A stretch of DNA of 64,000 bases from Chitinophagales bacterium (GTDB lineage Bacteria > Bacteroidota > Bacteroidia > Chitinophagales > Chitinophagaceae): NCBI GenBank assembly GCA_031375675.1, contig JANMIG010000014.1:15934-79933 (forward strand). The letters run 5' to 3'. The number at the start of each line of letters is the position of its first letter. Within the stretch, counting starts at the first letter, position 1. Below the pieces are notes generated by a model, which did no database searches, had not been told where the DNA came from, and saw nothing but the letters and a program-made list of their open reading frames with translations. A program made the translations under genes and the position numbers. Positions 20,991 to 35,960 of the stretch are shown in pieces.

Positions 20991-21073
20991 TGTGCGGAAA
21001 TGCAAACTGTTTTTTCTTGGTTATTGCCCCTGCTGCCTTATTTTTGCCATGCAACATTAATTTGCACTATAAT

Positions 21074-21466
21074 ATGGATTTTTCGCTCTTACAAGCAGGC
21101 GTAAACAGTTCCTCCAACTATTTGCCAATAGGTATACAGCTCATTTTTGCCATTGGTTTTATTGCCACCATGATGTTTCTAACGCATAAAATGGGGCCAA
21201 AACGCAAAACCAGTGACAAATTAGAGAATTTTGAAAGCGGTATAGCCGTACAGGGGAATGCCAGGCAACCCATGGCCATCAAGTACTTCCTGGTAGCCAT
21301 CCTGTTTGTGTTATTTGACGTGGAAGTTATTTTCTTTTACCCCTATGCCGTAAATTTTAAAGAACTTGGATGGCAGGGCCTGGGGGCTGTAGCCATGTTT
21401 GTGGGCCTTTTTATAGCGGGGTTCATATACATAGTTAAAAAAGGTGCGCTGAAGTGGGAAGACTGA
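21074..21466 (+). CDS. nuoA: NADH-quinone oxidoreductase subunit A
   Basis: KLENFESG and YFLVAILFVLFDVEVIFFYPYA. Start moved to MDFS. Confidence 0.95.
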   Translation: MDFSLLQAGVNSSSNYLPIGIQLIFAIGFIATMMFLTHKMGPKRKTSDKLENFESGIAVQGNARQPMAIKYFLVAILFVLFDVEVIFFYPYAVNFKELGWQGLGAVAMFVGLFIAGFIYIVKKGALKWED

Positions 21467-21547
21467 GCTATTGTGCAAATGAAACAATAGGCAAATGTGC
21501 AAATTGAAGAATTAAGAAGAACAAACATTACAAATAAATTAAGGATT

Positions 21548-22108
21548 ATGCGTCCGGTACAATATAACAATAAAGTGAAGTTTGATGGTATTCCTGAGGG
21601 ATACATGGGAGAGGGTTTTATGGCTACTTCTTTTGAAAAAGTAGTAGGGCTTGCCCGCAAAAACTCTATCTGGCCGCTGCCTTTTGCCACCAGTTGCTGT
21701 GGTATTGAGTTTATGGCCACCATGGCCAGCCATTACGACCTGGCACGGTTTGGCAGCGAAAGGGTTGGCTTTTCGCCCAGGCAATGCGATTTGCTGATGG
21801 TGATGGGTACCATTGCTAAAAAAATGGGGCCGGTATTAAAACAGGTGTACTTGCAAATGGCCGAACCACGCTGGGTTTTGTCAGTAGGTGCCTGTGCCTG
21901 CAGCGGCGGTATTTTTGATACTTATTCTGTATTGCAGGGTATTGACCAGATAATTCCTGTAGACGTATATGTGCCCGGGTGTCCCCCAAGGCCAGAAGCC
22001 ATTTTAGATGGTTTTATGAAAATACAGGATCTGGTACATAATGAAAGCCTGAGAAGACGCCACAGCGACAGGTATAAGGATTTACTGGCAAGTTATGGAA
22101 TACAGTAA
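21548..22108 (+). CDS. nuoB: NADH-quinone oxidoreductase subunit B
   Basis: FATSCCGIEFM and DVYVPGCPPRPE. Start moved to MRPV. Confidence 0.97.
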   Translation: MRPVQYNNKVKFDGIPEGYMGEGFMATSFEKVVGLARKNSIWPLPFATSCCGIEFMATMASHYDLARFGSERVGFSPRQCDLLMVMGTIAKKMGPVLKQVYLQMAEPRWVLSVGACACSGGIFDTYSVLQGIDQIIPVDVYVPGCPPRPEAILDGFMKIQDLVHNESLRRRHSDRYKDLLASYGIQ

Positions 22109-22175
22109 TAATTTGCAAATATGACAATGGGCCAATTTGCAAATTAAAAAGACAAGAAAACGATAATATTTAATA

Positions 22176-22679
22176 ATGGCTTTATCTAACGAGCAGGTGC
22201 AGCAAAAGCTGACGGAGAAATTTGGTGACGAGTTAACCAATTGGGAGGAGCAGTATGGTCTGCTCACTTTTACTGCGCCCAAAGAGCTGAATCTTAAAGT
22301 ATTGCAGTACCTGTTTGACGAAGAATCGCTGAAATTCAGGTTTTTAACGGATATATGTGCCGTTCATTTCCCTGATAATAAGGGGGCTGAACTGGCAGTG
22401 GTATATCACCTGCACAATCTTACCGATAATATCAGGCTGCGTTTTAAGGTATTTACAGATATCAGCACCCCGGATGTATACAGCGCCACGGCCTTGTATG
22501 CCAGCGCCAACTGGATGGAAAGGGAAACCTACGATTTTTACGGGGTGAATTTTGTGGGCCATCCCAATTTAATACGGGTACTCAATGTAGATGAAATGGA
22601 TTATTTTCCGCTGCGCAAAGAGTTTCCGCTGGAAGACCAGACCAGGATTGACAAGGATGATGAGATGTTTGGCAGATAG
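22176..22679 (+). CDS. nuoC: NADH-quinone oxidoreductase subunit C
   Basis: ANWMERETYDFYG..FVGHPNL and FPLRKEFPL. Confidence 0.96.
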   Translation: MALSNEQVQQKLTEKFGDELTNWEEQYGLLTFTAPKELNLKVLQYLFDEESLKFRFLTDICAVHFPDNKGAELAVVYHLHNLTDNIRLRFKVFTDISTPDVYSATALYASANWMERETYDFYGVNFVGHPNLIRVLNVDEMDYFPLRKEFPLEDQTRIDKDDEMFGR

Positions 22680-22683
22680 GATT

Positions 22684-22800
22684 ATGTGCTGATGTGCTGA
22701 TTTGATAATGTGCTGATGGGATAATTAAGGAATGTGCAAATGGGCAAATGTGCAAATGAAATAATGTGCTGATGGGATAATCCCGGATATCCGGGACAAG
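22684..22800. repeat. Octamer tract plus a perfect 16-bp palindrome in the nuoC-nuoD spacer
   Basis: GTGCTGAT and GCAAATGG/GCAAATGT octamers; TCCCGGATATCCGGGA at 22781-22796. Confidence 0.8.
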
Positions 22801-22875
22801 TGGTGCTGATGGCCAACAAGCAACTAAAAACAACCCGTAACAAAAATAAAACAAAGCTCCGCAGGAGCAACAGGT

Positions 22876-24096
22876 ATGAGCGAACATATTTTATTACCGG
22901 AAGGCAGTATAGAAAAGCAAACGACCACATTGAACCTGGGGCCCACGCACCCGGCCACGCATGGCGTTTTTCAGAATATACTGGAAATGGATGGCGAACG
23001 CATTGTGGATGCAGTAAGCACTGTTGGCTATATTCACCGTGCTTTTGAAAAACTGGCTGAGCGCAGGCCGCTGTACCAGATCACTCCCATTACCGACAGG
23101 CTGAATTACTGCTCCTCCCCCATCAACAATATGGGCTGGCACCTCACATGCGAAAAACTGCTGCAGGTAAAAACGCCCAAAAGGGTGGATTACCTCCGCA
23201 TCATCATCATGGAACTGGCCCGCATCAGCGATCACCTTATCTGCAACAGTATTGTAGGGGTTGATACCGGTGCTTACAGCGGATTTTTGTACCTGATGCA
23301 ATACCGTGAACTTATTTATGAAATATATGAAGAAGTATGTGGCTCCCGTCTTACTACTAATATTGGGCGTATTGGCGGTTTTGAAAGGAATTTCACAAAT
23401 ACGGCGTTTGAAAAACTAGAGAAATTCCTCAAGGAATATCCGGGCGTGCTGAAGGAGTTTGAAAACCTTTTCAACCGCAGCCGTATTTTTATCGACCGTA
23501 CAGTGGGCGTAGGTGCCATCAGTGCCGAAAGAGCGCTGAGCTATGGCTACACAGGCCCTAACCTGCGCAGTGCTGGTGTGGACTATGATGTAAGGGTGCA
23601 TTCGCCCTACAGTTCTTACGAAGACCTTGACTTTACCATACCGCTGGGCAAAACCGGCGATTGTTATGATAAGTTTTTAGTTCGCAACGAAGAAATGTGG
23701 CAGAGCCTGAGCATCATCCGCCAGGCATACCAGAAGGTGCAGGAGTTTAAAGGTGCCGAAGCTGATGTGTTTCATGCTGACTCTCCGGCTTACTACCTGC
23801 CTGAGAAAAAAGATGTGTACACCAAGATGGAAGCCCTTATATACCATTTTAAAATCATCATGGGCGAAACGGATATACCTGCCGGTGAAGTGTACCAGAG
23901 TGTGGAAGGTGCTAATGGCGAACTGGGGTACTACCTCATCAGCGATGGCGGCAGAACGCCCTACAGGCTGCATTTCCGCAGGCCATGTTTTGTGTATTAC
24001 CAGAGTTACCCTGAACTGATAAAGGGCGGAATGCTGAGTGATGCCGTGGTGTGTATGAGCAGTTTGAATTTGATAGCAGGGGAATTGGATGCTTAA
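22876..24096 (+). CDS. nuoD: NADH-quinone oxidoreductase subunit D
   Basis: LNLGPTHPATHGV, GYIHRAFEK, DRLNY and GELDA end. Confidence 0.97.
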   Translation: MSEHILLPEGSIEKQTTTLNLGPTHPATHGVFQNILEMDGERIVDAVSTVGYIHRAFEKLAERRPLYQITPITDRLNYCSSPINNMGWHLTCEKLLQVKTPKRVDYLRIIIMELARISDHLICNSIVGVDTGAYSGFLYLMQYRELIYEIYEEVCGSRLTTNIGRIGGFERNFTNTAFEKLEKFLKEYPGVLKEFENLFNRSRIFIDRTVGVGAISAERALSYGYTGPNLRSAGVDYDVRVHSPYSSYEDLDFTIPLGKTGDCYDKFLVRNEEMWQSLSIIRQAYQKVQEFKGAEADVFHADSPAYYLPEKKDVYTKMEALIYHFKIIMGETDIPAGEVYQSVEGANGELGYYLISDGGRTPYRLHFRRPCFVYYQSYPELIKGGMLSDAVVCMSSLNLIAGELDA

Positions 24097-24100
24097 TTAA

Positions 24101-24227
24101 TTTGCAAATGGGCAAATGAAACAATATGCAAATGCCTTTGTGCTGAATGAGTAGCTGAGGAAATAGCCAAACATCTGATTGAACGGGGTTTATTTTGCAT
24201 ATTTGCCCATTGGCATATTTGCACATT
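24101..24227. repeat. Inverted GCAAAT-type octamer tracts in the nuoD-nuoE spacer
   Basis: AATGGGCAAAT (24107-24117) pairs with ATTTGCCCATT (24201-24211); AATATGCAAA pairs with TTTGCATATT. Confidence 0.7.
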
Positions 24228-24257
24228 ATAAGAAAAATTACAAACAAAATAAACTGC

Positions 24258-24752
24258 ATGAGTAAACAGTTTTCAGCAGAAAAATTAAATAAGGTAAGCG
24301 AAATCATCAGCCGCTACCCCGAGGGCAGGCAAAAAAGTGCGCTGCTGCCGGTACTGCATATGGCACAGGATGAGTTTGGTGGCTGGTTAAGTGCTGAAAC
24401 GATGGACTATGTGGCATCGTTGCTGCAGATAGAGCCGATAGAAGTATATGAAGTAGCTACTTTTTACAGCATGTACAACCTGCAGCCAGTGGGAAAGTAC
24501 ATGTTTGAGGTTTGCCACACTGGCCCCTGCATGGTGAGTGGCAGTGACAATATCATCAATTATATTACCGAGAAACTGGGCATTAAAGCCGGTGAAACTA
24601 CGGCGGATGGCCTGTTTACGCTAAAAACGGTGGAGTGCCTGGGTGCCTGCGGCTACGCACCTATGATGCAGCTGGGCAAAACATACCGGGAACATTTAAC
24701 AAAGGAAAGAGTGGATGAGATTATTGCGGAGTGCAGGGCAAAGGCGAATTAG
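24258..24752 (+). CDS. nuoE: NADH-quinone oxidoreductase subunit E
   Basis: EVATFYSMY and CHTGPC...ECLGAC 2Fe-2S ligands. Start moved to MSKQ. Confidence 0.96.
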   Translation: MSKQFSAEKLNKVSEIISRYPEGRQKSALLPVLHMAQDEFGGWLSAETMDYVASLLQIEPIEVYEVATFYSMYNLQPVGKYMFEVCHTGPCMVSGSDNIINYITEKLGIKAGETTADGLFTLKTVECLGACGYAPMMQLGKTYREHLTKERVDEIIAECRAKAN

Positions 24753-24789
24753 ATTTTACAAATTGATACGTGTAACTAAATAATATTTT

Positions 24790-25011
24790 ATGGCAAAAAA
24801 AATTCATTTACCAATACTGATTGAGCAGGATGAGGATAAAGTGTATATCGTTTCCTGCCCGCAGTTTAAGGGCTGTCATTCCTATGGTAATACTATTGAA
24901 GAAGCCATGCAGAATATTCATGAAGTTATAGAAATGTGCCTGGAGGAAGAAAAGATTGAAAACGTAAATGATTTTGTTGGATTCAGGGAAATGGAATTTG
25001 AACTGGCTTAA
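24790..25011 (+). CDS. hicB: HicB-like antitoxin (UPF0150 domain only)
   Basis: IEQDEDKVYIVSCPQFKGCHSYGNTIEEAMQNIHEVIEM. No DNA-binding domain (73 aa). Confidence 0.85.
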   Translation: MAKKIHLPILIEQDEDKVYIVSCPQFKGCHSYGNTIEEAMQNIHEVIEMCLEEEKIENVNDFVGFREMEFELA

Positions 25012-25019
25012 TGTGAGTT

Positions 25020-25262
25020 ATGGGAAACAAGCAGGTTGTATTAAGTGGTAAAGACTTGGTAAGGTTATTGGAAAAGATGGGATTTGTTGTTGTGAGGATA
25101 AATGGTTCTCATCATAGAATGCGGCATGAAGATGGAAGGGTAACAACTATACCAGTTCATAAAAATGATGACTTGCCAAAAGGATTGATGCGTAAGATAA
25201 TCAGGGAAGATTTGAAAATGGAATTGGAGGACTTTGAAAATAAATTAAAGGATTTAATCTAA
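25020..25262 (+). CDS. hicA: HicA family toxin (dsRBD-fold mRNA interferase)
   Basis: SGKDLVRLLEKMGF...GSHH...TTIPVH..DLPKG..RKI. Confidence 0.9.
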   Translation: MGNKQVVLSGKDLVRLLEKMGFVVVRINGSHHRMRHEDGRVTTIPVHKNDDLPKGLMRKIIREDLKMELEDFENKLKDLI

Positions 25263-25265
25263 AAC

Positions 25266-25673
25266 ATGGTATTAAACGCATACATACATTTCCCCGGCAA
25301 TGCACAGGAAGCATTGGATTTTTATACCTCAGCATTGGGTGGAGAAGTGGTGTTTATGCAGCGCTACGGCGACAGCCCCATGCCCGCTGATGAGGAGTAC
25401 AAAAACAAAGTGATGCATGCACGCCTTGCATTTGATGGAAACATATTCATGGTATCGGATGTGTTCAAAGGGCAGCCGGTTAATACCAACGGCAATATCC
25501 AACTGAGCGTAAATGTGGAAACGGTTGAGCGGCTCAATGAGGTATTTGAAAAGATGAGTGAAGGCGGTACAGTTTCCATGCCTTTGCAGGATGCGTTCTG
25601 GGGCTCAAGGTTTGGCATGCTGCAGGACAGGTTTGGCGTAAACTGGATGTTTAATTGTGAATTGAAAAAATAA
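25266..25673 (+). CDS. VOC family protein (PhnB-like)
   Basis: YIHFPGNAQEALDFY, KVMHARL and MPLQDAFWGSRFGMLQDRFGVNWM. Confidence 0.9.
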   Translation: MVLNAYIHFPGNAQEALDFYTSALGGEVVFMQRYGDSPMPADEEYKNKVMHARLAFDGNIFMVSDVFKGQPVNTNGNIQLSVNVETVERLNEVFEKMSEGGTVSMPLQDAFWGSRFGMLQDRFGVNWMFNCELKK

Positions 25674-25798
25674 GCGGGAAGGATAAGTGACGGGAAAGGT
25701 TCAGTAGCGATACGCTGTACAAGAGTGCGACGCCACTGAAGCAGGGAAAAGAACAAATGTTAGTAACAAAAGTAAAAATTTGCTAAAAGCAAATCAAT

Positions 25799-27151
25799 AT
25801 GGCTAAAAAATTATTATTAGCAAACGCACATGTACCGGGTATCCGCAGCTACGAAGTGTACCGCCGCGAAGGTGGCTACCGCAGCGTGGAAAAAGCATTA
25901 AAGATGCAACCGGCCGATATTGTGGAAGAAGTGAAGAAAAGCGGGCTGCGTGGCCGTGGCGGTGCAGGCTTTCCTGCGGGTATGAAGTGGAGTTTTATTG
26001 CCAAACCCGAAGGCGTTCCCCGTCACCTGGTATGCAATGCCGACGAAAGTGAGCCGGGTACTTTTAAAGACAGGTACCTGATGGAATTTATTCCGCACCT
26101 GCTGGTAGAAGGAATGATTGTGTCTTCTTTTGCGCTGGGCAGCAATGTGAGTTATATCTACATCCGTGGCGAGTATGCCTGGATAGTGGACATACTGGAA
26201 ACAGCCATAAGTGAAGCAAAGGCCAACGGCTTTTTGGGTAAAAATATACAGGGCAGTGGCTTTGATTGCGAAATATATGTACATCGTGGAGCCGGTGCCT
26301 ATATCTGCGGAGAAGAAACCGCACTGATTGAAAGCCTGGAGGGCAAACGTGGTAATCCACGGATAAAGCCGCCCTTCCCTGCTGTAAAAGGTGTGTGGGA
26401 CAGGCCAACAGTAGTGAACAATGTGGAAACCCTGGCTGCAGTAGTGCCCATCATCAACGATGGTGGCGAGGAATATGCAAAAATCGGCGTTGGCCGCTCC
26501 ACGGGTACCAAACTGATGTCGGCCTGCGGTAATATCAATAAGCCGGGTGTGTATGAAATTGATATGACCATCAGCGTGGAGGAATTTATCTTCAGCGATG
26601 AATATTGTGGCGGTATTGCCAATGGAAAAAGGTTGAAAGCCTGTATCCCGGGTGGTTCTTCTGTGCCCATTTTACCTGCCAACCTGCTGCTGAAAACGGC
26701 TAAGGGTGAGCCAAGGCTGATGAATTACGAGAGCCTTTCGGATGGTGGTTTTGCTACCGGCAGTATGATGGGCAGCGGTGGTTTTGAAGTGCTGGATGAA
26801 GACCAGTGTATTGTGCGCCATACCTATTCGCTGGCCAGGTTTTACCACCACGAAAGCTGCGGCCAATGCAGCCCCTGCCGTGAGGGTACCGGCTGGATGA
26901 AAAAGATACTGCACAATATCGAATACGGCAAAGGCAAAATGAGCGATATTGAATTGTTGTGGGATATACAGCGCAAGATAGAGGGTAATACCATTTGCCC
27001 GCTGGGTGATGCAGCAGCATGGCCCGTAGCAGCGGCCATCCGCCATTTCAGGGATGAGTTTGAATGGCATGTGCTGAACCCGGAGGAATGTTTGACAAGA
27101 AATTACGGGCTGGCGCATTATGCCGACCCATTGGAACTGGCAAAAGCATAA
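25799..27151 (+). CDS. nuoF: NADH-quinone oxidoreductase subunit F
   Basis: SGLRGRGGAGFP, NADESEPGTFKD, GAGAYICGEETAL and CGQCSPCREG. Confidence 0.98.
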   Translation: MAKKLLLANAHVPGIRSYEVYRREGGYRSVEKALKMQPADIVEEVKKSGLRGRGGAGFPAGMKWSFIAKPEGVPRHLVCNADESEPGTFKDRYLMEFIPHLLVEGMIVSSFALGSNVSYIYIRGEYAWIVDILETAISEAKANGFLGKNIQGSGFDCEIYVHRGAGAYICGEETALIESLEGKRGNPRIKPPFPAVKGVWDRPTVVNNVETLAAVVPIINDGGEEYAKIGVGRSTGTKLMSACGNINKPGVYEIDMTISVEEFIFSDEYCGGIANGKRLKACIPGGSSVPILPANLLLKTAKGEPRLMNYESLSDGGFATGSMMGSGGFEVLDEDQCIVRHTYSLARFYHHESCGQCSPCREGTGWMKKILHNIEYGKGKMSDIELLWDIQRKIEGNTICPLGDAAAWPVAAAIRHFRDEFEWHVLNPEECLTRNYGLAHYADPLELAKA

Positions 27152-27183
27152 AGGAGATAAACGATAAACAGGAATTGTACTTT

Positions 27184-28017
27184 ATGAAAATCATCGGAGC
27201 GGCGTTGTTGCTTTTGTTGGCAGCAACAACGGCAAGGGCGCAGGATATAAAAAAATATGATCCCCTGAAAAAGGGTCAGTTTTATGTATATTGGGGCTGG
27301 AACAGGGAGTGTTACTCAAGGAGTGATATAACACTGAAAGGGGCAGATTATGATATTAAATTGCTGAATGTAAGGGCAAAAGACAAGCCTACTAAGTTAT
27401 CCTATCATAATTACCTCCAGCCCGACAGGGTAACCATACCGCAAACAAATGTGCGGATTGGTTATTTTATCAAGCCAGGGTTGGCAGTGAGTGTTGGGGT
27501 TGATCACATGAAGTATGTTGTAAGTAATAATCAGACTGTAACGGCATTGGGAACGATAAACAGACCAGGGCAGTTTGAAAGAGTATTTGGAGGCCCGGAA
27601 CAGCTCACAACAGATTTTTTGACATTTGAGCATACTGACGGGTTGAATTATGTACATTTTGCCGTGGAGAAATACAAAGAGTTGTACCACTCCAAAACGG
27701 AGAAATGTATTGTAAACTGGTATTATGGAGCAGGAGCAGGTGTGCTGGTGCCAAAAACAAATGTGAAGTTCCTGGATTATGAACGCAACGACAGGTTTCA
27801 TGTATCAGGTTACGGAATAAGTGGGGTTGCGGGTATGCAGGGTGTATTTTTTAAGCATTTTATTATGCGGTTAGAAACAAAGGGTGGTTACATCAATATG
27901 CCGGACATTATCCTGCATAAAAAAGGTGTTGAAGGAAGGGGCAGGCAGCATTTCTTTTTTGGAGAGGCATTTTGGGCGCTGGGAGCAACATACAATTTGA
28001 ATAGGAAAAGAAAGTAA
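27184..28017 (+). CDS. Secreted hypothetical protein, probable outer-membrane beta-barrel
   Basis: Signal peptide ending AQ, amphipathic aromatic strands (FYVYWGWNR, GYFI, WYYGAGAG) and C-terminal LGATYNL. Start moved to MKII. Confidence 0.7.
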   Translation: MKIIGAALLLLLAATTARAQDIKKYDPLKKGQFYVYWGWNRECYSRSDITLKGADYDIKLLNVRAKDKPTKLSYHNYLQPDRVTIPQTNVRIGYFIKPGLAVSVGVDHMKYVVSNNQTVTALGTINRPGQFERVFGGPEQLTTDFLTFEHTDGLNYVHFAVEKYKELYHSKTEKCIVNWYYGAGAGVLVPKTNVKFLDYERNDRFHVSGYGISGVAGMQGVFFKHFIMRLETKGGYINMPDIILHKKGVEGRGRQHFFFGEAFWALGATYNLNRKRK

Positions 28018-28035
28018 ACGTATTAAAAAAGATTT

Positions 28036-29094
28036 TTGGAGAATATACACAACATAGAAATTAAAAACTTTAAGTCCATTCGGCACGCATCAATTGATGA
28101 ATGCAAGCGGATTAATGTTTTTGTGGGGCCGCCAAATGTCGGGAAGAGTAACATATTGGAAGCGTTAGGGTTGTTTAGTATGTTAGATCCTTCATTCGGC
28201 ACCTCTTTGAGTCTTCAAAAGCTAACTCGGATAACGAAAGCATCGCAACTTTTTTTTGATGGTTTAATAACCGAACATGGAGTGGTTTCATTAAATCGGA
28301 AACTTACAATGTCCATAGAGGCTATTCCCGGAATAGAAATAGCATTTAATATAGCAAGTGAAGATAATACAGGCATACTTGAAGCCAAAGGCCAAGTCAA
28401 GGCCATTAGTTATAAAAATCATATTGATAGGGCTACCAGTATTTCCTCTCACTCGACCAACTATAAATACAATGAAATAAAACCAATTCGTAAATATGTT
28501 TTCGACAAACAATCATTGCGGTCCAATTTTGAAACTAACTCTAAATATCTTATTACTCCATTTGGCGAAAACATGACAGATATTATTTTCTCAATACCAG
28601 AAGTGAAAAATAAGGTGTTGGGCATATTAAATACTTTTAAACTTAAAACATCTCGTCCTGAGAGCTCAGGCATTTTTTCCATATTGAAAGAGTTAAGTGA
28701 TGGTTCTTTTCTAATTTTGGATTTTGACCTACTTGCAGAAACCTTACAAAGGCTTATTTTTCATCATACAGCAATACTGAGCAATAATGATGCTATATTA
28801 TTGTTTGAAGAGCCTGAATCGCATTTATATGAGCCATATATATTGGATATTACCAATGCAATAAAGTATGACAAAAACAATAATCAATATTTTATCGTTA
28901 CGCATAATCAGTATTTTATAGATGAATTATTGCGTGATGAGGAAAGCAGGAATGAAACCAATATTTATATGGTAGGGCTGGAAAATGGAGAAACTGCTGT
29001 GAGATGGTTAAGTCCAGAAAAAAGTGAAGATGTATTTAATAACGGCTTAAACATATTTTTTAACTACGAAAACCTTTGGAAAGAAAACGCCTGA
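28036..29094 (+). CDS. ABC/SMC-type ATPase of the AAA_15/AAA_21 (OLD/AbiEii-like) group
   Basis: IEIKNFKSI, Walker A GPPNVGKS, Walker B LLFEEPESHL and H-loop VTHN. TTG start; AT-rich. Confidence 0.9.
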   Translation: MENIHNIEIKNFKSIRHASIDECKRINVFVGPPNVGKSNILEALGLFSMLDPSFGTSLSLQKLTRITKASQLFFDGLITEHGVVSLNRKLTMSIEAIPGIEIAFNIASEDNTGILEAKGQVKAISYKNHIDRATSISSHSTNYKYNEIKPIRKYVFDKQSLRSNFETNSKYLITPFGENMTDIIFSIPEVKNKVLGILNTFKLKTSRPESSGIFSILKELSDGSFLILDFDLLAETLQRLIFHHTAILSNNDAILLFEEPESHLYEPYILDITNAIKYDKNNNQYFIVTHNQYFIDELLRDEESRNETNIYMVGLENGETAVRWLSPEKSEDVFNNGLNIFFNYENLWKENA

Positions 29095-29095
29095 T

Positions 29096-29650
29096 ATGCA
29101 GAAAGTAATTGGTGTGGAGTGCTGGGCAGATTATTATTTTTTTGGCCGGTTACTAAACGACAGTAAGATAATAAGGAAGGAAAAAAACAAGAATGAAGTA
29201 CTTAAGAGTATCACAGAGCGGGCAAAAGGAAGTTTTTCAGTTGGTGTGGTGGATCATGACAAAAAAGAGCTTACTGTCTACCTGAAAGAGACCGAAATTG
29301 AAGGAATGGTTACAATTGGAGAGTACATACATGTAAGTAAGTTTGCAGGAAGTATTCAGTTTGTAATTGAACTGAAACCAGTTGAGTTTGAAATATGGAT
29401 AAATGAATTTTTAAAAACTGAAGGTAAATCAGTAGCAGATTTTGGATATGAGAGTTTAAAAGAATTTATTGAGGAGTCGAAATCAATCTATGAGGTGCTT
29501 TTAAGTAAGCCAAGATTTATTAAACTGATGGATTTTATTTTTGAGCATTATAAAAATTCTGATAACCATATCAGGAAAATAAAACTAATTTTAGAATACC
29601 TGTTAAAAAACAGGTATCAAGCAGATATAAACGAATTAATCAATGTCTGA
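29096..29650 (+). CDS. TOPRIM-like partner protein of the ATPase
   Basis: N-terminal strand plus Glu (VIGVECWAD) and a strand plus DxD (VGVVDHD). AT-rich; lies 1 nt after the ATPase stop. Confidence 0.55.
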   Translation: MQKVIGVECWADYYFFGRLLNDSKIIRKEKNKNEVLKSITERAKGSFSVGVVDHDKKELTVYLKETEIEGMVTIGEYIHVSKFAGSIQFVIELKPVEFEIWINEFLKTEGKSVADFGYESLKEFIEESKSIYEVLLSKPRFIKLMDFIFEHYKNSDNHIRKIKLILEYLLKNRYQADINELINV

Positions 29651-30695
29651 ACAGAAACAATTATTTAAGGTAACAATCGACAACATTACCATTGAGGTGG
29701 AACCGGGTACTACGGTACTCAACGCAGCCCGTCAAATTGGTGGCGATGTTACCCCGCCTGCCATGTGCTATTACAGCAAGCTGGCGGGCAGCGGGGGCAA
29801 GTGCCGTACCTGCCTGGTGGAAGTAGCCGCCGGCTCCACTGCCGACCCACGCCCTATGCCCAAGCTGGTGGCAAGCTGCCGCACTACGGTAATGGATGGC
29901 ATGGTTGTAAAAAATTGCACCAGCGACAGGGTGACGGATGCCCGCAATGGCGTAGTGGAGTTTCTCCTTATGAACCATCCGCTGGACTGCCCCATCTGCG
30001 ACCAGGCTGGTGAATGCCACCTGCAGGATCTGGGCTACTCCCACGGTAAGGAAGGTACCCGCTATGAATTTGACAGAAGAACATTCGAAAAAATTGATAT
30101 TGGCGATAAGATACAACTGCACATGACCCGCTGCATCCTTTGCTACAGGTGCACCTACGTGGCCGACCAGCTGACGGACAAAAGGGTGCATGGCATCCTC
30201 AGCCGTGGCGACCATGCAGAGATAAGCACTTACATCGAAAAAGCTGTTGACAACGATTTCAGCGGCAATATGATTGATGTATGCCCGGTAGGTGCCTTAA
30301 CGGATAAAACTTTCCGCTTTAAAAACAGGGTATGGTTTACCAAACCGGTAGATGCACACCGTAACTGCGATACACCCGGCTGCTGCGGTAAAACTACGCT
30401 GTGGCTGCGTGGTGACGAAGTGTACAGGGTTACCAGCCGTAAAGATCAATGGGGCGAAGTGCAGAGTTTCGATGGTAAACCCGGATGGATATGCAATACC
30501 TGCCGCTTTGATAAAAAGAAAACAGGCGACTGGGAGGTTGAAGGACCAACAAAAGTAAACAGGCATTCAGTAATATCTCAGGGGCATTATGAAAATGGAG
30601 TGAAACCAGGCGAAACGATGCAGAAAGTGATGGATGGCAGGGCCCCTAAATTGCTGATGAATATACACAGTGTGAGTGAGGTGAATAAAAAGTAG
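29643..30695 (+). CDS. nuoG: NADH-quinone oxidoreductase subunit G (short, Fe-S domain form)
   Basis: CYYSKL...CRTC, HPLDCPICDQAGEC, CILCYRC and CPVGAL. 350 aa. Confidence 0.95.
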   Translation: MSEQKQLFKVTIDNITIEVEPGTTVLNAARQIGGDVTPPAMCYYSKLAGSGGKCRTCLVEVAAGSTADPRPMPKLVASCRTTVMDGMVVKNCTSDRVTDARNGVVEFLLMNHPLDCPICDQAGECHLQDLGYSHGKEGTRYEFDRRTFEKIDIGDKIQLHMTRCILCYRCTYVADQLTDKRVHGILSRGDHAEISTYIEKAVDNDFSGNMIDVCPVGALTDKTFRFKNRVWFTKPVDAHRNCDTPGCCGKTTLWLRGDEVYRVTSRKDQWGEVQSFDGKPGWICNTCRFDKKKTGDWEVEGPTKVNRHSVISQGHYENGVKPGETMQKVMDGRAPKLLMNIHSVSEVNKK

Positions 30696-30872
30696 GTATT
30701 GGGGAGCTTATGCTGAGGGAAGCAAGTTGACAGGTTGATTTGTTGATAAGTAATGTACAGAATGGTGTGTGGGGGGCGTTCATCTGTCAACGATACATAA
30801 ATTCGTGTAATCAGTGTAATTCCTGGTAAGTAGTGATAAAAAAGTTGAACAATTAATAAAAGATTTTGAATA

Positions 30873-31925
30873 ATGTTATTATCAATTGAATGGCCTGTAG
30901 TTATTGAGAAACTCATACTTATTGTGGTGGTGGTTTCTGCCTCACTAATAATCGCCATGTATGCTACATTTGCCGAACGCAAAGTGGCTGCAATTATACA
31001 GGACAGGCGGGGCCCCAACCGTGCCGGACCTTTTGGATTGCTGCAGCCGCTGGCAGATGGCCTCAAGCTTTTCTTTAAGGAAGAGATCATCCCTGCTTTT
31101 TCCACAAAGTTTCTTTTTATACTTGGCCCCTGCTTAGCCATGCTTACAGCGATGATGACGAGTGCCGTAATCCCCTGGGGTGATACGCTGCATCTTTTCG
31201 GTCGTGATATCAGCCTGCAGATAACTGACGTAAACATCGGTATCCTGTTTGTTTTTGGTGTGGTGAGTATGGGCGTTTACGGTATTATGATCGGCGGCTG
31301 GGCCAGTAATAATAAATTCTCCCTGATTGGTGCCTTACGGGCTGCTTCTCAAATCATCAGTTACGAGCTGCCCATGGGCATTGCCCTTATTGCTCTGCTG
31401 ATGGTAACAGGTACCCTCAGCCTTAAAGAAATGGTGGTGCAGCAGCAGTCAGGATGGTGGAACATCCTTTACCAGCCACTGGGTTTTCTCATTTTCCTCA
31501 TTTGCTCTTTTGCAGAATGTAACCGTACACCTTTTGACCTGCCCGAGGCAGAAAATGAACTGATAGGCGGGTACCATACAGAATACTCAAGTATGAAACT
31601 TGGCTTCTTCCTGTTTGCAGAATACATCAATATGTTTGTAAGCAGCGCCATAATGGCCACCCTGTTTTTTGGTGGTTATGATATGCCATTCGTAAATGAA
31701 GCCAATTTTTCACCCAATATTGCAGCATTAATAGGTACTTCGGCATTGTTACTTAAAACAGCCTTCTTTCTTTTCCTGTTCATGTGGGTACGGTGGACCA
31801 TCCCCCGTTTCCGTTACGACCAGTTGATGAACCTTGGCTGGAGGATATTAATACCTTTAGCGCTGCTGAACATGCTGGGTACAGGTGCTTTTATACTGTT
31901 TAAAGAAAAGGGATGGCCCTTTTAA
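30873..31925 (+). CDS. nuoH: NADH-quinone oxidoreductase subunit H
   Basis: ERKV..IQDRRGPNRAGPFGLLQPLADG.K and NRTPFDLPEAENEL. Confidence 0.97.
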   Translation: MLLSIEWPVVIEKLILIVVVVSASLIIAMYATFAERKVAAIIQDRRGPNRAGPFGLLQPLADGLKLFFKEEIIPAFSTKFLFILGPCLAMLTAMMTSAVIPWGDTLHLFGRDISLQITDVNIGILFVFGVVSMGVYGIMIGGWASNNKFSLIGALRAASQIISYELPMGIALIALLMVTGTLSLKEMVVQQQSGWWNILYQPLGFLIFLICSFAECNRTPFDLPEAENELIGGYHTEYSSMKLGFFLFAEYINMFVSSAIMATLFFGGYDMPFVNEANFSPNIAALIGTSALLLKTAFFLFLFMWVRWTIPRFRYDQLMNLGWRILIPLALLNMLGTGAFILFKEKGWPF

Positions 31926-31974
31926 AGTTAAAAAATATATTTGCGCTGCAATTGGCGCACAGAATAAATAAAAT

Positions 31975-32538
31975 ATGCAAACGACATTAACCAACAGGGG
32001 CAAATTTGTAGAGCGTAAACCGATGAGTTTCCTGGAGCGTATGTACCTCCCTGCCATTGTAAAAGGTATGTTTATCACTTTTAAACATATCTTTAAAAAG
32101 AAGGCAACCATCAATTATCCTGAAAAAAAGCGCCCCTTCAGCCCGGTATTCCGGGGCCTGCATGTACTTAACAGGGATGAGGCCGGCAGAGAAAACTGTA
32201 CAGCCTGTGGCCTTTGCGCCGTAGCCTGCCCGGCAGAAGCCATAACCATGGAAGCTGCCGAAAGGAAAAAAGGTGAAGAAAACCTGTACCGGGAAGAAAA
32301 ATATGCAGCTAAATACGAGATCAATATGCTGCGCTGCATCTTTTGCGGCCTTTGCGAAGAAGCTTGCCCCAAAGATGCTATCTATTTAAGTGAAACTTTT
32401 GCCCCGGCCAATTACGAACGGAAAGGGTTTATCTACGGTAAGGATGACTTACTCATTCCCCACCCGGTAGAAGAGGCGGAAGCATACCAAAAAGCGCTGG
32501 GCAACAGGGCGCAGCAAAAAACAACGGCCAATAATTAA
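31975..32538 (+). CDS. nuoI: NADH-quinone oxidoreductase subunit I
   Basis: CTACGLCAVAC and CIFCGLCEEAC 4Fe-4S motifs. Confidence 0.97.
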   Translation: MQTTLTNRGKFVERKPMSFLERMYLPAIVKGMFITFKHIFKKKATINYPEKKRPFSPVFRGLHVLNRDEAGRENCTACGLCAVACPAEAITMEAAERKKGEENLYREEKYAAKYEINMLRCIFCGLCEEACPKDAIYLSETFAPANYERKGFIYGKDDLLIPHPVEEAEAYQKALGNRAQQKTTANN

Positions 32539-32559
32539 CAGTACAACGGTACAAGCATC

Positions 32560-33069
32560 ATGAGTATAACAACCATACTATTTATTTTTCTCAGTGCAAT
32601 GGCATTAACAGGTGCCTGCGCTGTGGTTACCAGCAAAAACCCGGTACACAGCGTGCTTTGGCTCATCGTGGTATTTTTTGCCATCTCGGGGCATTATATC
32701 CTTTTAAATGCCCAGTTTCTGGCAGTGGTAAACATCATCGTATATGCCGGGGCCATCATGGTACTATTCCTGTTTGTGGTGATGCTGATGAACCTGAATG
32801 CCGACAGCGAACCCCCAAGACGTAACAATATCTTCATCGCTTCATTGGTTTCAGGGCTGTCGCTGATGCTGGTAATCATTGCAGCACTCCGCAACTCAGA
32901 GCAATTTCTGCACCAGCAGCAGGTACAGATGGGCACAGGGGATGTGGGATTGATAAAAGTACTGGGCAAAACATTGTTTACAGATTATGTAATTCCATTC
33001 GAAATAAGCAGTGTGCTGTTTTTAAGCGCCATCATTGGTGCAGTAGTAATCGCAAAAAAAGAACAATAG
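32560..33069 (+). CDS. nuoJ: NADH-quinone oxidoreductase subunit J
   Basis: KNPVHSVLWL and YAGAIMVLFLFVVML. Confidence 0.96.
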   Translation: MSITTILFIFLSAMALTGACAVVTSKNPVHSVLWLIVVFFAISGHYILLNAQFLAVVNIIVYAGAIMVLFLFVVMLMNLNADSEPPRRNNIFIASLVSGLSLMLVIIAALRNSEQFLHQQQVQMGTGDVGLIKVLGKTLFTDYVIPFEISSVLFLSAIIGAVVIAKKEQ

Positions 33070-33092
33070 ACAGATCAATAAAACAATAAATT

Positions 33093-33623
33093 ATGAAGAA
33101 AATTCTGGTGGTAGCATTTTTCACAGCAGCCTGCATCGGTAAAAGCCAGGCACAGATTGACCTTAAAAAAATATTTGACCTGGATGATATTGTAGGCAAG
33201 GTATTGAATGTGAAAAAAGGTTTTGCACCTAAATTTTCGCTGGGAAATCAGCCCATTACCAAAATTTTTAAGGTGGGCGAAATACTGGGATTGAAAAAGA
33301 ACGACCAGGTGGATAAATATTTCAGGATGTTTAAAACCGGCAGGACCATTTACAAGATTGCCGCTTATGCGGGTACCGCTATATCAGTATATGGTGCTGT
33401 AAAGGGTATTGACAAAGCCGCTGCAAAAAAAGATTACCAGGGTGCCATCATTGGTGGTTTAAGCACCATTGGTACCGGTCTGATAACAAAATTTTTAACC
33501 AAGTCTGCCTCTTACAAAGCTGTTGATATTTTCAATGGAGTGGTAAAAAGGAAGCTTGGCGACATATTGGGTGTGGCCCCGGCCTCATCAACGATAGGTG
33601 TAGGTGTTTATGTAAAATTATAA
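33093..33623 (+). CDS. Secreted Lys-rich hypothetical protein with Gly-rich hydrophobic helices
   Basis: Signal peptide ending [15 protein letters not shown] segment and C-terminal IGVGVYVKL. Sits between nuoJ and nuoK. Confidence 0.75.
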
Positions 33624-33627
33624 GAGT

Positions 33628-33960
33628 ATGGAAATCAAATGGTATATAGGACTGGCAGTGGCACTTTTTTGTATAGGTGTGGCTGGTGTGCTTACCCGCC
33701 GCAATGCCATCATAGTGTTTATGTGTATTGAGCTGATGCTGAATGCCGTAAACCTGCTGCTGGTAGCATTCAGTAAAATGCATGCTATGGCCCCGTCCAC
33801 GGCGGCTTATCCCAGCCTGGCCAGCGATGCCCAGGTATTTGTATTCTTCATCATGGTAGTGGCTGCTGCAGAAGTGAGTGTGGGACTGGCCATTATCGTA
33901 ATGCTTTACCGAAATACACATTCGGTAGACATTAATTTCCTGAACAGGCTGAAGAATTAA
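33628..33960 (+). CDS. nuoK: NADH-quinone oxidoreductase subunit K
   Basis: RRNAI...IELMLNAVN and [12 protein letters not shown]. Confidence 0.96.
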
Positions 33961-34070
33961 CCATCCCTGTTTCTCCGGAAACACTGATGGCAGCAATAAT
34001 GAAATAATTTTTAACATGCCCCGCAGTTTTTACAATTGCGGGGGTAAAAGCCCAAGGGGGTTTTGGCTTT

Positions 34071-35960
34071 ATGAGTAAAATTTTTGAACTGGCCTGGCTT
34101 ATTCCTGTTTTGCCGCTTGTTGGTTTTTTGATCAACGGGCTGTGCAGAAAGCAGTTGTCAAGAGGCCTTGCAGGTATTACCGGCAGTGGTGTTGTACTGG
34201 CATCTTTTGTAATCAGTCTCCTGGTTTTTATGGAGGTCAAAGCCGGTAACACGGCTACGGTACAATTGTTTGAGTTTATCAGCATCCCCTCGCTGCACAT
34301 CAGCTTTGCTTTTCAGCTGGATGCCTTGTCATCGCTGTTCCTGCTCATCATTACCGGTGTGGGCTTTCTTATACATGTGTACTCCACCGCCTACATGCAC
34401 AGCGAGGAACCCAAAGATTTTGCAAAATATTTTGCCTACCTCAACCTCTTTGTATTTTCCATGCTGCTGCTGGTAATGGGCTCCGGCTTTGTTACCATGT
34501 TCATCGGCTGGGAAGGCGTTGGCCTCTGTTCTTACCTGCTCATCGGCTTCTGGTTTAAAAATAACAATTACAATGCCGCTGCTAAAAAAGCATTTGTGAT
34601 GAACCGCATTGGCGACCTGGGTTTCCTGCTGGCCATCTTCTGGCTCATTGCCAAAACGGGCAGTGCGGAATACAGCCAGGTTTTTACAGCCGCATCACTG
34701 GCTAAACTTACTGCCACCGATATTACCGGCATTACCCTGCTGCTCTTTGTGGGTGCCACGGGTAAAAGTGCCCAGATACCCCTGTTTACCTGGCTGCCCG
34801 ATGCCATGGCCGGCCCCACACCCGTATCGGCACTGATACATGCTGCTACCATGGTTACAGCCGGTGTGTACATGATTGCCCGCAGCAATCTATTGTTTTC
34901 AATGGCCGAAACCACCCAGCACATCATTGCAGTTATTGGCCTTGCCACAGCATTACTGGCTGCCACCATTGCCCTCAAACAAAACGATATTAAAAAGGTA
35001 CTTGCCTACAGTACAGTAAGCCAGCTGGGCTATATGTTCCTGGCACTGGGTATGGGCGCCTATACCGCTGCTGTTTTTCATGTAATGACGCATGCATTCT
35101 TTAAAGCATTGTTATTCCTTGGCTCGGGCAGTGTGATACATGCCATGGGCGGTGAACAGGATATTACCAAAATGGGCGGTTTAAAGGGGAAATTAAAAAT
35201 CACTTACATAACTTTTTTAATTGGATGCCTGGCCATTGCAGGTTTCCCTCCCCTTTCTGGTTTCTTTAGTAAAGATGCCATACTCATCAGCGCATTTGAA
35301 CACAATAAGATTTTATATGCCGGTGCTTTAATTGGTGCCATACTTACCGCTTTTTACATGTTCAGGTTGCTGTTCCTTACTTTTAACGGCAGTTTCCGTG
35401 GTACAGAAGAACAAAAACATCACCTGCACGAAAGCCCCCCGGCCATGACGGTACCGCTGGTGATACTGGCCATATTGTCAATCATTGGTGGCTTTGTGGG
35501 CATTCCCGAAGTATTCAAAGCAGGTGGCGACCAGCTGCATGCCTTCCTGGCTCCTGTATTAAGCAGCGAAAAATCAGCACATGAATTATCCCATTCCACT
35601 GAGCTGATGCTGATGGGGCTTGCCATCGCACTGGTGATTGCAGCCGTTATTTTTGCTTTTATCAAAACAAAAAAAGTGGACAATACCGAAGCAACAGGCT
35701 TTGGCAAAGTGCTGCAAAACAAATGGTATGTGGATGAACTGTACGCAGCCATTATTACAAAACCTTTACAAAAACTGTCGGCCCTGTTTAACAATGTGAT
35801 AGAAAAAAGAGGCATTGATGGCTTTGTAAATGGCATTGGCAAAAGCATCAATTATGGCAGCAGGCAGATAAGGCTTTTGCAGAACGGAAATGTGGGCAAT
35901 TATGTACTGATGATGGTCATCGGGATAATTGTGTTTTTAATTGTACAATTGTTTATTTAG
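34071..35960 (+). CDS. nuoL: NADH-quinone oxidoreductase subunit L
   Basis: GWEGVGLCSYLLIGFW and GKSAQIPLFTWLPDAMAGPTPVSALIHAATMV. Confidence 0.98.
   Translation: MSKIFELAWLIPVLPLVGFLINGLCRKQLSRGLAGITGSGVVLASFVISLLVFMEVKAGNTATVQLFEFISIPSLHISFAFQLDALSSLFLLIITGVGFLIHVYSTAYMHSEEPKDFAKYFAYLNLFVFSMLLLVMGSGFVTMFIGWEGVGLCSYLLIGFWFKNNNYNAAAKKAFVMNRIGDLGFLLAIFWLIAKTGSAEYSQVFTAASLAKLTATDITGITLLLFVGATGKSAQIPLFTWLPDAMAGPTPVSALIHAATMVTAGVYMIARSNLLFSMAETTQHIIAVIGLATALLAATIALKQNDIKKVLAYSTVSQLGYMFLALGMGAYTAAVFHVMTHAFFKALLFLGSGSVIHAMGGEQDITKMGGLKGKLKITYITFLIGCLAIAGFPPLSGFFSKDAILISAFEHNKILYAGALIGAILTAFYMFRLLFLTFNGSFRGTEEQKHHLHESPPAMTVPLVILAILSIIGGFVGIPEVFKAGGDQLHAFLAPVLSSEKSAHELSHSTELMLMGLAIALVIAAVIFAFIKTKKVDNTEATGFGKVLQNKWYVDELYAAIITKPLQKLSALFNNVIEKRGIDGFVNGIGKSINYGSRQIRLLQNGNVGNYVLMMVIGIIVFLIVQLFI

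Follow-up and report, generated by a model that had tools for sequence, protein, structure and literature searches.

The window analysed here, 64,000 nucleotides of contig JANMIG010000014.1 from a soil-type Chitinophagaceae bacterium, contains a complete 14-gene nuo operon on the + strand, extending from nuoA (21074) to nuoN (38921). The complex I genes and the genes inserted among them were assigned using Pfam and NCBIfam profiles, a start-codon check and tblastn maps. Core energy operons are usually viewed as fixed, whereas this one carries passengers at a few set gaps: seven extra + strand genes, three between nuoE and nuoF, three between nuoF and nuoG and one between nuoJ and nuoK. A sequence-only reading of the region had placed seven accessory genes at these junctions, and every subunit and insert was found where it had put it. 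That reading also proposed that nuo acts as a landing pad for a traffic in promoter-less cassettes, with degenerate 7-8-mer tracts at other junctions as footprints or substrates of the process.

Seven passenger genes in three gaps of the nuo operon

The operon begins with nuoA (21074-21466), nuoB (21548-22108), nuoC (22176-22679), nuoD (22876-24096) and nuoE (24258-24752). After the first group of inserts follows nuoF (25799-27151); nuoG (29643-30695), nuoH (30873-31925), nuoI (31975-32538) and nuoJ (32560-33069) lie between the second and the third, and nuoK (33628-33960), nuoL (34071-35960), nuoM (36003-37502) and nuoN (37530-38921) complete the operon. Spacers measured 37, 8, 3 and 125 nt in the order nuoE-hicB-hicA-VOC-nuoF, 32, 18, 1 and -8 nt in the order nuoF-barrel-ATPase-partner-nuoG, and 23 nt before and 4 nt after the 176-aa gene at nuoJ/K. 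Apart from the 125 nt before nuoF, spacers thus ranged from -8 to 37 nt, and the inserts are co-directional and tightly packed, as had been described. All open reading frames (ORFs) in 21-39 kb could be assigned and, again in agreement with the earlier account, none of them encodes an integrase, transposase or recombinase. The seven inserted genes are single-copy in the host genome. Their GC content at third codon positions (GC3) was compared with that of the nuo genes (0.47-0.57): it was native-like for the VOC gene (0.54), 0.41-0.44 for the J/K protein and the barrel, 0.36 for hicBA and 0.31 for the ATPase-partner pair.

The presumed operon promoter (21017-21046, + strand) has the form TTG-N19-TATTTTTG; its -7 box starts at 21039, 35 nt before nuoA. 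In a pattern scan, this site was the sole intergenic match to the Bacteroidota pattern TTG-N19-TAnnTTTG, and no promoter of this type was detected in the spacers preceding the inserted genes. Sigma-70-like promoter sites and terminator-like sites in the operon occurred at chance level. The inserts therefore appear to be promoter-less, as the sequence-only reading held, none having a Bacteroidota-type promoter of its own or an above-chance terminator. Because such consensus signals are lacking, we infer that the inserts are probably transcribed by read-through from the nuoA promoter.

The nuoE/F gap begins with hicB (24790-25011, + strand; 73 aa; PF15919, 1.1e-12) and hicA (25020-25262, + strand; 80 aa; PF07927, 8.7e-22). 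By its domains the pair belongs to the HicAB systems: the two adjacent genes, 8 nt apart, encode the toxin domain of HicA and the antitoxin fold of HicB. The C-terminal DNA-binding domain of HicB normally autoregulates the hicAB promoter. The HicB of the window matches only positions 2-47 of the 123-position profile, that is, the N-terminal fold; since its 73 residues span no more than this, there is no room for a DNA-binding domain and thus no autoregulated promoter. Homologues of the HicA (70-89% identity) lay in nuo gaps in five of six sampled genomes (E/F in three, C/D in two); the remaining one was found on the same strand within a gltX gene string. When hicBA copies were compared, similarity began at about the hicB ATG and stopped at the hicA stop codon, and no conserved flank was detected around the unit.

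The third gene in this gap (25266-25673, + strand; 135 aa; PF06983/PF00903 and NCBIfam) encodes a VOC/YjdN-like glyoxalase-fold protein. It recurs at E/F in six congeners, in a Segetibacter metagenome-assembled genome (L053) and in L063, a Joint Genome Institute metagenome contig closely related to the window, and is a resident of the gap. The spacer that follows it (25674-25798, + strand) contains, according to RNA folding, a conserved hairpin motif with the loop GTACAAGAGTGCGAC and then an A-rich leader. The genome has 21 copies of the hairpin (25695-25745; loop motif GTACAAG-N-G-N-G-Y-GAC), 17 in intergenic DNA, on contigs C3, C4, C8, C14, C17, C20 and others, and relatives have it as well in spacers of nuo (upstream of nuoF and nuoD) and dcw. 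Rfam gave no match for it or for any other part of the operon. It might act in cis-regulation or mark a site of RNA processing. In L022, from another family of the same order, another AAA ATPase occupies the nuoE/F gap together with a TOPRIM partner of the DUF3226/OLD-like kind, and nuoE and nuoF are detached from the remaining operon.

At nuoF/G, the first gene (27184-28017, + strand) encodes a protein of 277 aa with a signal peptide (N-terminus MKIIGAALLLLLAATTARAQ). Its AlphaFold2 model is all-beta (pLDDT 85), and Foldseek matched the model to OmpA, OmpW, OprG and OmpX (E about 1e-6, probability 1.0, modest TM-scores). The combination of a signal peptide with a predicted antiparallel barrel fold supports the label of outer-membrane beta-barrel that had been given to this gene by eye. 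The family is large (5130 homologues); the gene stands directly after nuoF in three of three sampled homologues, one of them from Niabella, and is also present in L008, L012 and L063. The barrel is thus a family-wide resident placed directly after nuoF.

The second gene (28036-29094, + strand; 352 aa, TTG start) encodes an ABC/SMC-type ATPase (Pfam AAA_15, 1.9e-13; AAA_21, 8e-11). PADLOC matched it over its full length to PDC-M38A (2e-20) and AbiLi (2.9e-18), the latter aligning residues 4-339 with positions 2-338 of a 340-position profile; it is an ATPase of the kind that occurs in AbiL/PARIS/OLD-type pairs. A paralogue of 31% identity is encoded elsewhere in the host genome (G000:C8:73356-76475), two genes from a hairpin-flanked PF05635 cassette of the kind described below.

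The ATPase is followed by a partner gene (29096-29650, + strand; 184 aa) that overlaps the nuoG start by 8 nt. The partner protein had no Pfam, NCBIfam or PADLOC match, and its model (pLDDT 90.6) had no PDB neighbour in Foldseek. Residues E8 and D53-x-D55 were invariant in six homologues. This E...DxD motif is no more than a hint of a TOPRIM domain: an hhalign comparison with a DUF3226/TOPRIM-type partner gave a probability of 0.7%, and the label of TOPRIM nuclease was dropped for want of a profile match, a positive hhalign result or a Foldseek neighbour. Relatives of the partner were sought by a pattern and tblastn scan of one genome per GTDB species. All six that were found lie between nuoF and nuoG with the ATPase upstream, and in each host the pair has a higher AT content than the DNA flanking it. 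One of the six is from Flavobacterium, which belongs to a different class and has an otherwise compact operon; its NuoF and NuoG showed no Chitinophagaceae-like recombination mosaic beside the insert. The Bacteroidota promoter pattern is matched in full once more inside the partner ORF (29310-29345, TTG-N19-TAAGTTTG), about 300 nt before nuoG. This match may be due to chance; alternatively, an internal promoter here could restore expression of nuoG-N past the AT-rich insert. NuoG itself is short, with 350 aa; it aligns only with positions 1-260 of the 606-position NuoG model and does not have the large C-terminal molybdopterin-like domain; the short form was present in all relatives examined.

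The single gene at nuoJ/K (33093-33623, + strand) encodes a signal-peptide protein of 176 aa with Gly/Ala-rich hydrophobic C-terminal segments. No Pfam family matched it. Its 694 homologues have a uniform length of 176 aa and a mean column identity of 71%; the gene lies between nuoJ and nuoK in four of four sampled places and is present in five congeners. It is a conserved resident of this gap. Beyond nuoK, the spacer to nuoL (33961-34070) contains three GC-rich hairpins in 110 nt (fold z = -3.38, 0/200 shuffles as good) that differ from the tract-type spacers described below; they may represent an attenuator, a stabiliser or an element resembling repetitive extragenic palindromes inside the operon.

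Junction occupancy in relatives and control operons

We fetched the nuo loci of 21 same-genus species representatives and of a few other families and mapped every junction; the congeneric counts refer to 22 operons, the window included. Gene-sized inserts were present at 43 of 241 junctions. They were concentrated at E/F (19/22), F/G (13/21) and J/K (7/19), with few at D/E (2/20), G/H (1/19) and H/I (1/19) and none among congeners at the remaining junctions. The approximately 54 inserts backed by Pfam or by a conserved cluster were all co-directional with nuo. The occupants of the congeneric gaps belong to at least 20 unrelated families, including DUF4440, VOC, a retropepsin-like protein, NlpE-like lipoproteins, M48 peptidase, DUF4160 with DUF2442, MNT with HepT, an AbiEii-like nucleotidyltransferase, PF05635 four-helix-bundle proteins and PF13366 PD-(D/E)XK proteins. 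On a tree of Nuo proteins, occupants showed both clade structure and patchiness, the VOC gene dominating one clade and DUF4440 another; in three species on the tree the gaps were empty.

The differences between close relatives were whole-gene indels with clean edges. Thus, L063, which is 88-90% identical in DNA to window positions 22400-28100, has a UPF0175/DUF3368 (PIN-like) toxin-antitoxin pair at nuoD/E where the window has tracts, and an AT-rich gene for a 195-aa lipoprotein between hicA and VOC that is absent from the window. The idea of a landing pad is therefore upheld in the form of a junction-specific hotspot: the content of the gaps is not identical among relatives and varies within one genus.

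As controls we used two other operons of the same genomes. In the S10-spc-alpha ribosomal-protein cluster, none of 241 junctions was at least 250 nt long; in the dcw cluster, 9 of 109 were, and 0 of 109 contained an ORF. Fisher tests of nuo against the two clusters gave 3e-14 and 6e-8, respectively. Since both clusters are without inserted genes, long operons do not generally act as landing pads here, and the more general statement of the sequence-only reading, that housekeeping operons hold tract-flanked inserted genes, fails for these two. The large dcw gaps, at mraY/murD, are non-coding repeats of two to five copies of an approximately 60-nt unit (…gtcctgtaatcatcaataccattgaagaaccaa…) with no ORF; found in three congeners (L030, L031 and L034) and in the host genome (C27:9130-9312), they are a conserved feature inside another core operon.

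The fidelity of some families to one gap could mean that these passengers are lineage-specific parts of complex I (accessory subunits, assembly factors or protectants) that are kept in place for co-expression. Candidates would be the membrane or secreted protein at J/K and the VOC or DUF4440 protein beside the NADH-oxidising module. The strict gap-fidelity, uniform length and conservation of the J/K protein are in line with such a role, as are the native composition of VOC and DUF4440, their recurrence at E/F in many species and the tight translational coupling suggested by the spacers. Nevertheless, there is no gene-sized insert at J/K in 12 of 19 congeners or at E/F in 3 of 22, and these operons are intact. 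Moreover, unrelated families (VOC, DUF4440, NlpE-like and retropepsin-like proteins and toxin-antitoxin pairs) swap at one and the same gap, the F/G resident is an outer-membrane barrel and hence in the wrong compartment for complex I, and a role in respiration is implausible for the HicBA and ATPase pairs. We consider this explanation unlikely.

A different explanation could apply to the AT-rich pairs. Embedding in nuo might be adaptive for conflict systems of the toxin-antitoxin and ATPase-nuclease types if these are coupled to the transcription of a constitutive operon: shut-off of host transcription by a phage would end the supply of antitoxin and so trigger the toxin. Alternatively, the ATPase-partner pair might home to nuoF/G. 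Both the HicBA and the ATPase-partner lineages occur almost only in nuo gaps; the HicB lacks the domain needed for autoregulation; and the pair, AT-rich in all six hosts, has reached a different class at the same junction without a flank mosaic. It is the Flavobacterium junction that keeps this alternative alive. On the other hand, a sentinel role could be filled by any operon with steady transcription, yet neither control operon has inserts; a relative of the HicBA resides in another housekeeping gene string, that of gltX; and a nuclease function of the partner is putative, with an hhalign probability of 0.7% and no Foldseek neighbour. Taken as a whole, we judge adaptive embedding or homing improbable. 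A further proposal, which we make tentatively and with considerable doubt, is that the ATPase-partner pair (at nuoF/G in 7/7 genomes from two bacterial classes) and the HicBA lineage without a DNA-binding domain are complex I gap specialists that arrive at one junction in distant hosts through homing-like targeting or because no other transcriptional context sustains them. If so, nuo transcription may be the signal that restrains a toxin or nuclease.

Repeat tracts and hairpin elements

The sequence-only reading had noted degenerate 7-8-mer tracts at the junctions from A/B to D/E and at G/H. To evaluate them, we compared the direct and inverted repeat scores of each spacer with those of 100 dinucleotide shuffles. 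The tracts at B/C, C/D and D/E stood up to this comparison, the one at A/B was weak and the one at G/H did not differ from shuffled sequence. The A/B spacer (21467-21547, + strand) contains GCAAATG-type units with a direct-repeat score of 19 versus 14.8 +/- 2.3 (9/100 shuffles as good). B/C (22109-22175, + strand) holds two copies of the palindromic 12-mer TAATTTGCAAAT, with a period of 8 in Tandem Repeats Finder (TRF); for inverted and direct repeats alike, 0/100 shuffles were as good. In C/D (22680-22875, + strand), there are tandem arrays of GTGCTGAT and of the octamers GTGCAAAT/GGCAAATG (TRF arrays 22692-22725 and 22731-22781), which are one-sided, with no inverted partner; the direct-repeat score was 44 versus 17.9 +/- 2.4 (0/100 shuffles). 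The D/E spacer (24097-24257, + strand) has an inverted pair of GCAAATG-type arrays (~24098-24132 and ~24195-24229, loop ~60 nt) that form a 35-nt imperfect inverted repeat, scoring 30 versus 17.1 +/- 2.3 (0/100 shuffles). Its minimum-energy fold pairs both arms, with a z of only -0.68, and the spacer is an ORF-less hairpin element. G/H (30696-30872, + strand) contains GTTGAC...GTCAAC and one copy of a dispersed motif, ATTCGTGTAATC / ATTCGTGTAATCAGTGTAAT; it was not significant as a repeat (inverted, 26/100 and direct, 89/100 shuffles as good; fold z = -1.43).

RNA folding of the window junctions was mostly no better than that of shuffles (z = -0.1 to -1.4; B/C, -2.8), and genome-wide, array-bearing spacers folded no better than array-free ones. 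Because folding energies were unremarkable, we relied on arm-to-arm complementarity tests for the tracts; as the energies do not single the tracts out, their role as RNA stems is putative. Single words were likewise of limited use. ATTCGTGT was 12.8-fold denser in intergenic than in coding DNA, and the G/H-type motif also adjoins PF05635 and PF13366 genes; other single octamers were enriched just 1- to 3-fold in intergenic DNA. The tract signal lies in arrays, not in words. With relaxed TRF settings, we found 572 intergenic arrays genome-wide with periods of 7, 8, 14, 16, 21, 22 or 24 and many unit families. A genome-wide k-mer search for inverted partner arrays was swamped by A/T-rich units.

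The tracts can be linked to two gene families, of which the host genome has ten PF05635 and two PF13366 genes. For 9 of these 12 genes, the left flank paired best with the gene's own right flank (28-37 versus 18.1 +/- 2.8 for cross-pairs). The copies each have a different unit (GACAGTT, GGGTATT, GAACTTT, GATAGTT and others), and one (G000:C97:8897) is flanked by the GCAAATG/GCACATT family, as in the nuo tracts from A/B to D/E. Nine of the 12 sit between same-strand neighbours. Relatives have PF05635 or PF13366 genes at F/G between tract arms, and decayed and arm-only versions occur at the same site; L002, L005 and L010 have a PF05635 ORF there. Since bracketed, decayed and arm-only versions are all found at this junction, tracts do mark an insertable class of their own. 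From their sequence, the window tracts are of the arm type of these hairpin-flanked cassettes, a separate class of element that is spread through the genome and resembles the intervening sequences (IVSs) of rRNA.

ORF-bearing IVSs of 23S rRNA contain an S23p-family ORF between complementary termini that are cut by RNase III; examples are the Coxiella burnetii IVS with its S23p ORF and the IVSs of Leptospira and Salmonella (PMC4990558). The elements described here share with them a small PF05635-family ORF bordered by complementary termini that could form a long stem, a sporadic, selfish-looking distribution and the existence of ORF-less versions. Complementary termini are present in nine of the 12 ORF-bearing copies and in the D/E inverted repeat, and C/D and A/B are one-sided. 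The elements differ from IVSs in that they lie between protein-coding operon genes instead of in the helices of 23S rRNA, in that their arms consist of 7-8-nt tandem units varying from copy to copy, and in that some copies carry a PF13366 nuclease-fold gene instead. Furthermore, the window nuo operon has ORF-less arms only; the internal PF05635 ORF occurs elsewhere in the genome.

Can the tracts also account for the seven inserted genes? As proposed by the sequence-only reading, a dedicated system would insert and remove promoter-less cassettes at operon junctions, leaving tracts as its substrates or footprints. The variable content of the junctions and the clean whole-gene indels between close relatives are what such a system would produce, and for one class, the PF05635/PF13366 genes at F/G in relatives, tracts do mark the insertable unit. 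For the seven genes of the window, however, no flanking tract was found, and the spacers around them hold no repeats. Tracts of the window sit at A/B, B/C and C/D, where 0 of 17-19 congeners have a gene-sized insert, and at D/E (2/20). Because tracts are absent around the seven genes and lie mostly at seldom-occupied junctions, their interpretation as scars or substrates fails for these genes. Nor are the tracts specific to nuo: besides the 572 dispersed arrays, inverted GCTGAT arrays are present in two spacers of the host ribosomal-protein operon, yet this operon has no gene inserts (0/241 junctions in the cluster). The units differ from junction to junction and change fast: L063 has another array than the window at the C/D site, and GTGCTGAT units where the ~90%-identical window has GCAAATG units. 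The operon contains no integrase or transposase, hicBA homology extends only from about ATG to stop with no conserved flank, and the residents are faithful to their gaps. A dedicated traffic system is thus very unlikely.

Probable permissive harbouring of passengers and its relation to known systems

Taken together, we favour, with a probability of roughly 0.6, the view that nuo is a permissive, long-used harbour for same-strand passengers, in which three layers are superimposed without a dedicated cassette-integration machine. The first layer consists of old, gap-faithful residents, namely the barrel after nuoF, the 176-aa J/K protein and the VOC gene before nuoF, whose families are large and conserved and whose composition is native or intermediate. 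The second is formed by the putatively selfish or defence-type AT-rich pairs, HicB-HicA and ATPase-partner, whose relatives are almost always in nuo gaps. The third comprises the non-coding 7-8-mer tracts, the arms of hairpin cassettes built like IVSs. Most passengers are gap-faithful residents, not freely trafficking cassettes.

Going beyond the anatomy, variability, gap-fidelity and control counts, which are observed, we infer that such a harbour could operate as follows. Passengers would be transcribed by read-through from the single promoter before nuoA and translated by close coupling. Rare illegitimate insertions would survive only if they are on the same strand and terminator-free, because a polar insertion would deprive the nuo genes behind it of expression. 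A lineage that has adapted to promoter-less life would persist, helped by toxin-antitoxin addiction and by the cost of imprecise deletion. Recombination in the conserved flanks provided by nuo may carry passengers from one related operon to another, which would be a partial route of their spread.

Several points weigh against this interpretation. Since the ATPase-partner pair is present at the same junction in Flavobacterium without a mosaic, flank-mediated recombination explains its arrival poorly, and the case hints at targeting or at selection for the exact site. A complex I-related function would explain the gap-fidelity of the barrel and of the J/K protein just as well. Constraint on the ribosomal-protein and dcw clusters may simply exceed that on nuo, and the special position of nuo is based on just two control operons. 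Sampling of genomic context was small, with three to six places per family, and the partner search was built on peptide patterns and reached close relatives only. Finally, a lack of consensus expression signals is weak evidence of read-through in Bacteroidota.

The operon offers a natural system for asking by what means genes without a promoter come into operons and last there, for what reason toxin-antitoxin and defence-type modules come to lie in nuo operons, and whether bacterial complex I has overlooked partners among small conserved proteins, of which the J/K resident is an example. Some of the passengers have been in place since before the genera split; others are AT-rich and look recently acquired. 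The analysis also separates two things that are readily linked by eye, the genome-wide hairpin and tandem tracts and the passenger genes. For annotation, it serves as a warning that "hypothetical" genes inside Bacteroidota nuo operons are real, conserved families.

Our literature searches turned up no account of toxin-antitoxin or defence genes located within nuo operons. Extra ORFs in alphaproteobacterial nuo clusters and IVS elements in rRNA are already known. As far as the searched literature shows, what is new are the gap-specific resident lineages in Bacteroidota, the near-confinement of toxin-antitoxin and defence-type pairs to nuo gaps, and the IVS-like cassettes and arm-only relics in operon spacers.

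Among known systems, the first pair corresponds to HicAB type II toxin-antitoxin modules in that neighbouring genes encode the toxin domain of HicA and the N-terminal antitoxin fold of HicB. It departs from them in the order hicB then hicA, in its short HicB devoid of the DNA-binding domain and in its location inside a housekeeping operon. The second pair is similar to the anti-phage modules AbiL, PARIS AriA/AriB, OLD/Gabija and the PADLOC candidate PDC-M38, in which an ABC-ATPase is split from a small nuclease-type partner, since it is AT-rich, consists of two genes and contains an ATPase that matches AbiLi and PDC-M38A over its full length; unlike in those modules, the partner matches no PADLOC, Pfam or PDB entry, and the module, whose defence role is putative, is embedded in nuo, its stop codon running into the start of nuoG.

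Integron cassettes are likewise promoter-less, same-strand, tightly packed genes behind an upstream promoter, in arrays whose content varies between relatives. In nuo, however, there is no IntI tyrosine recombinase among the ORFs in 21-39 kb, no attI and no attC-type inverted repeat or other common cassette boundary, the spacers of the inserts being free of repeats; and the inserts are distributed over several gaps of a housekeeping operon, with lineages faithful to one gap. Chromosomal hotspots and defence islands, too, hold accessory and defence-like genes at a few fixed, core-flanked positions with turnover between relatives. Here, in contrast, the positions are inside one essential-type operon, and the insertions are same-strand, terminator-free and one to three genes deep.

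A further precedent comes from Paracoccus denitrificans and Rhodobacter capsulatus, in whose nqo/nuo clusters unidentified reading frames (URFs) were described in the 1990s. These, too, are extra same-strand ORFs of unrelated or unknown function between complex I genes. The URFs are co-transcribed with the complex I genes, as the passengers of the window probably are. The present host belongs to a different phylum, however, and among its occupants are an outer-membrane barrel and pairs of the toxin-antitoxin and defence types. Moreover, the content of the gaps varies within one genus, and lineages keep to their gaps across genera.

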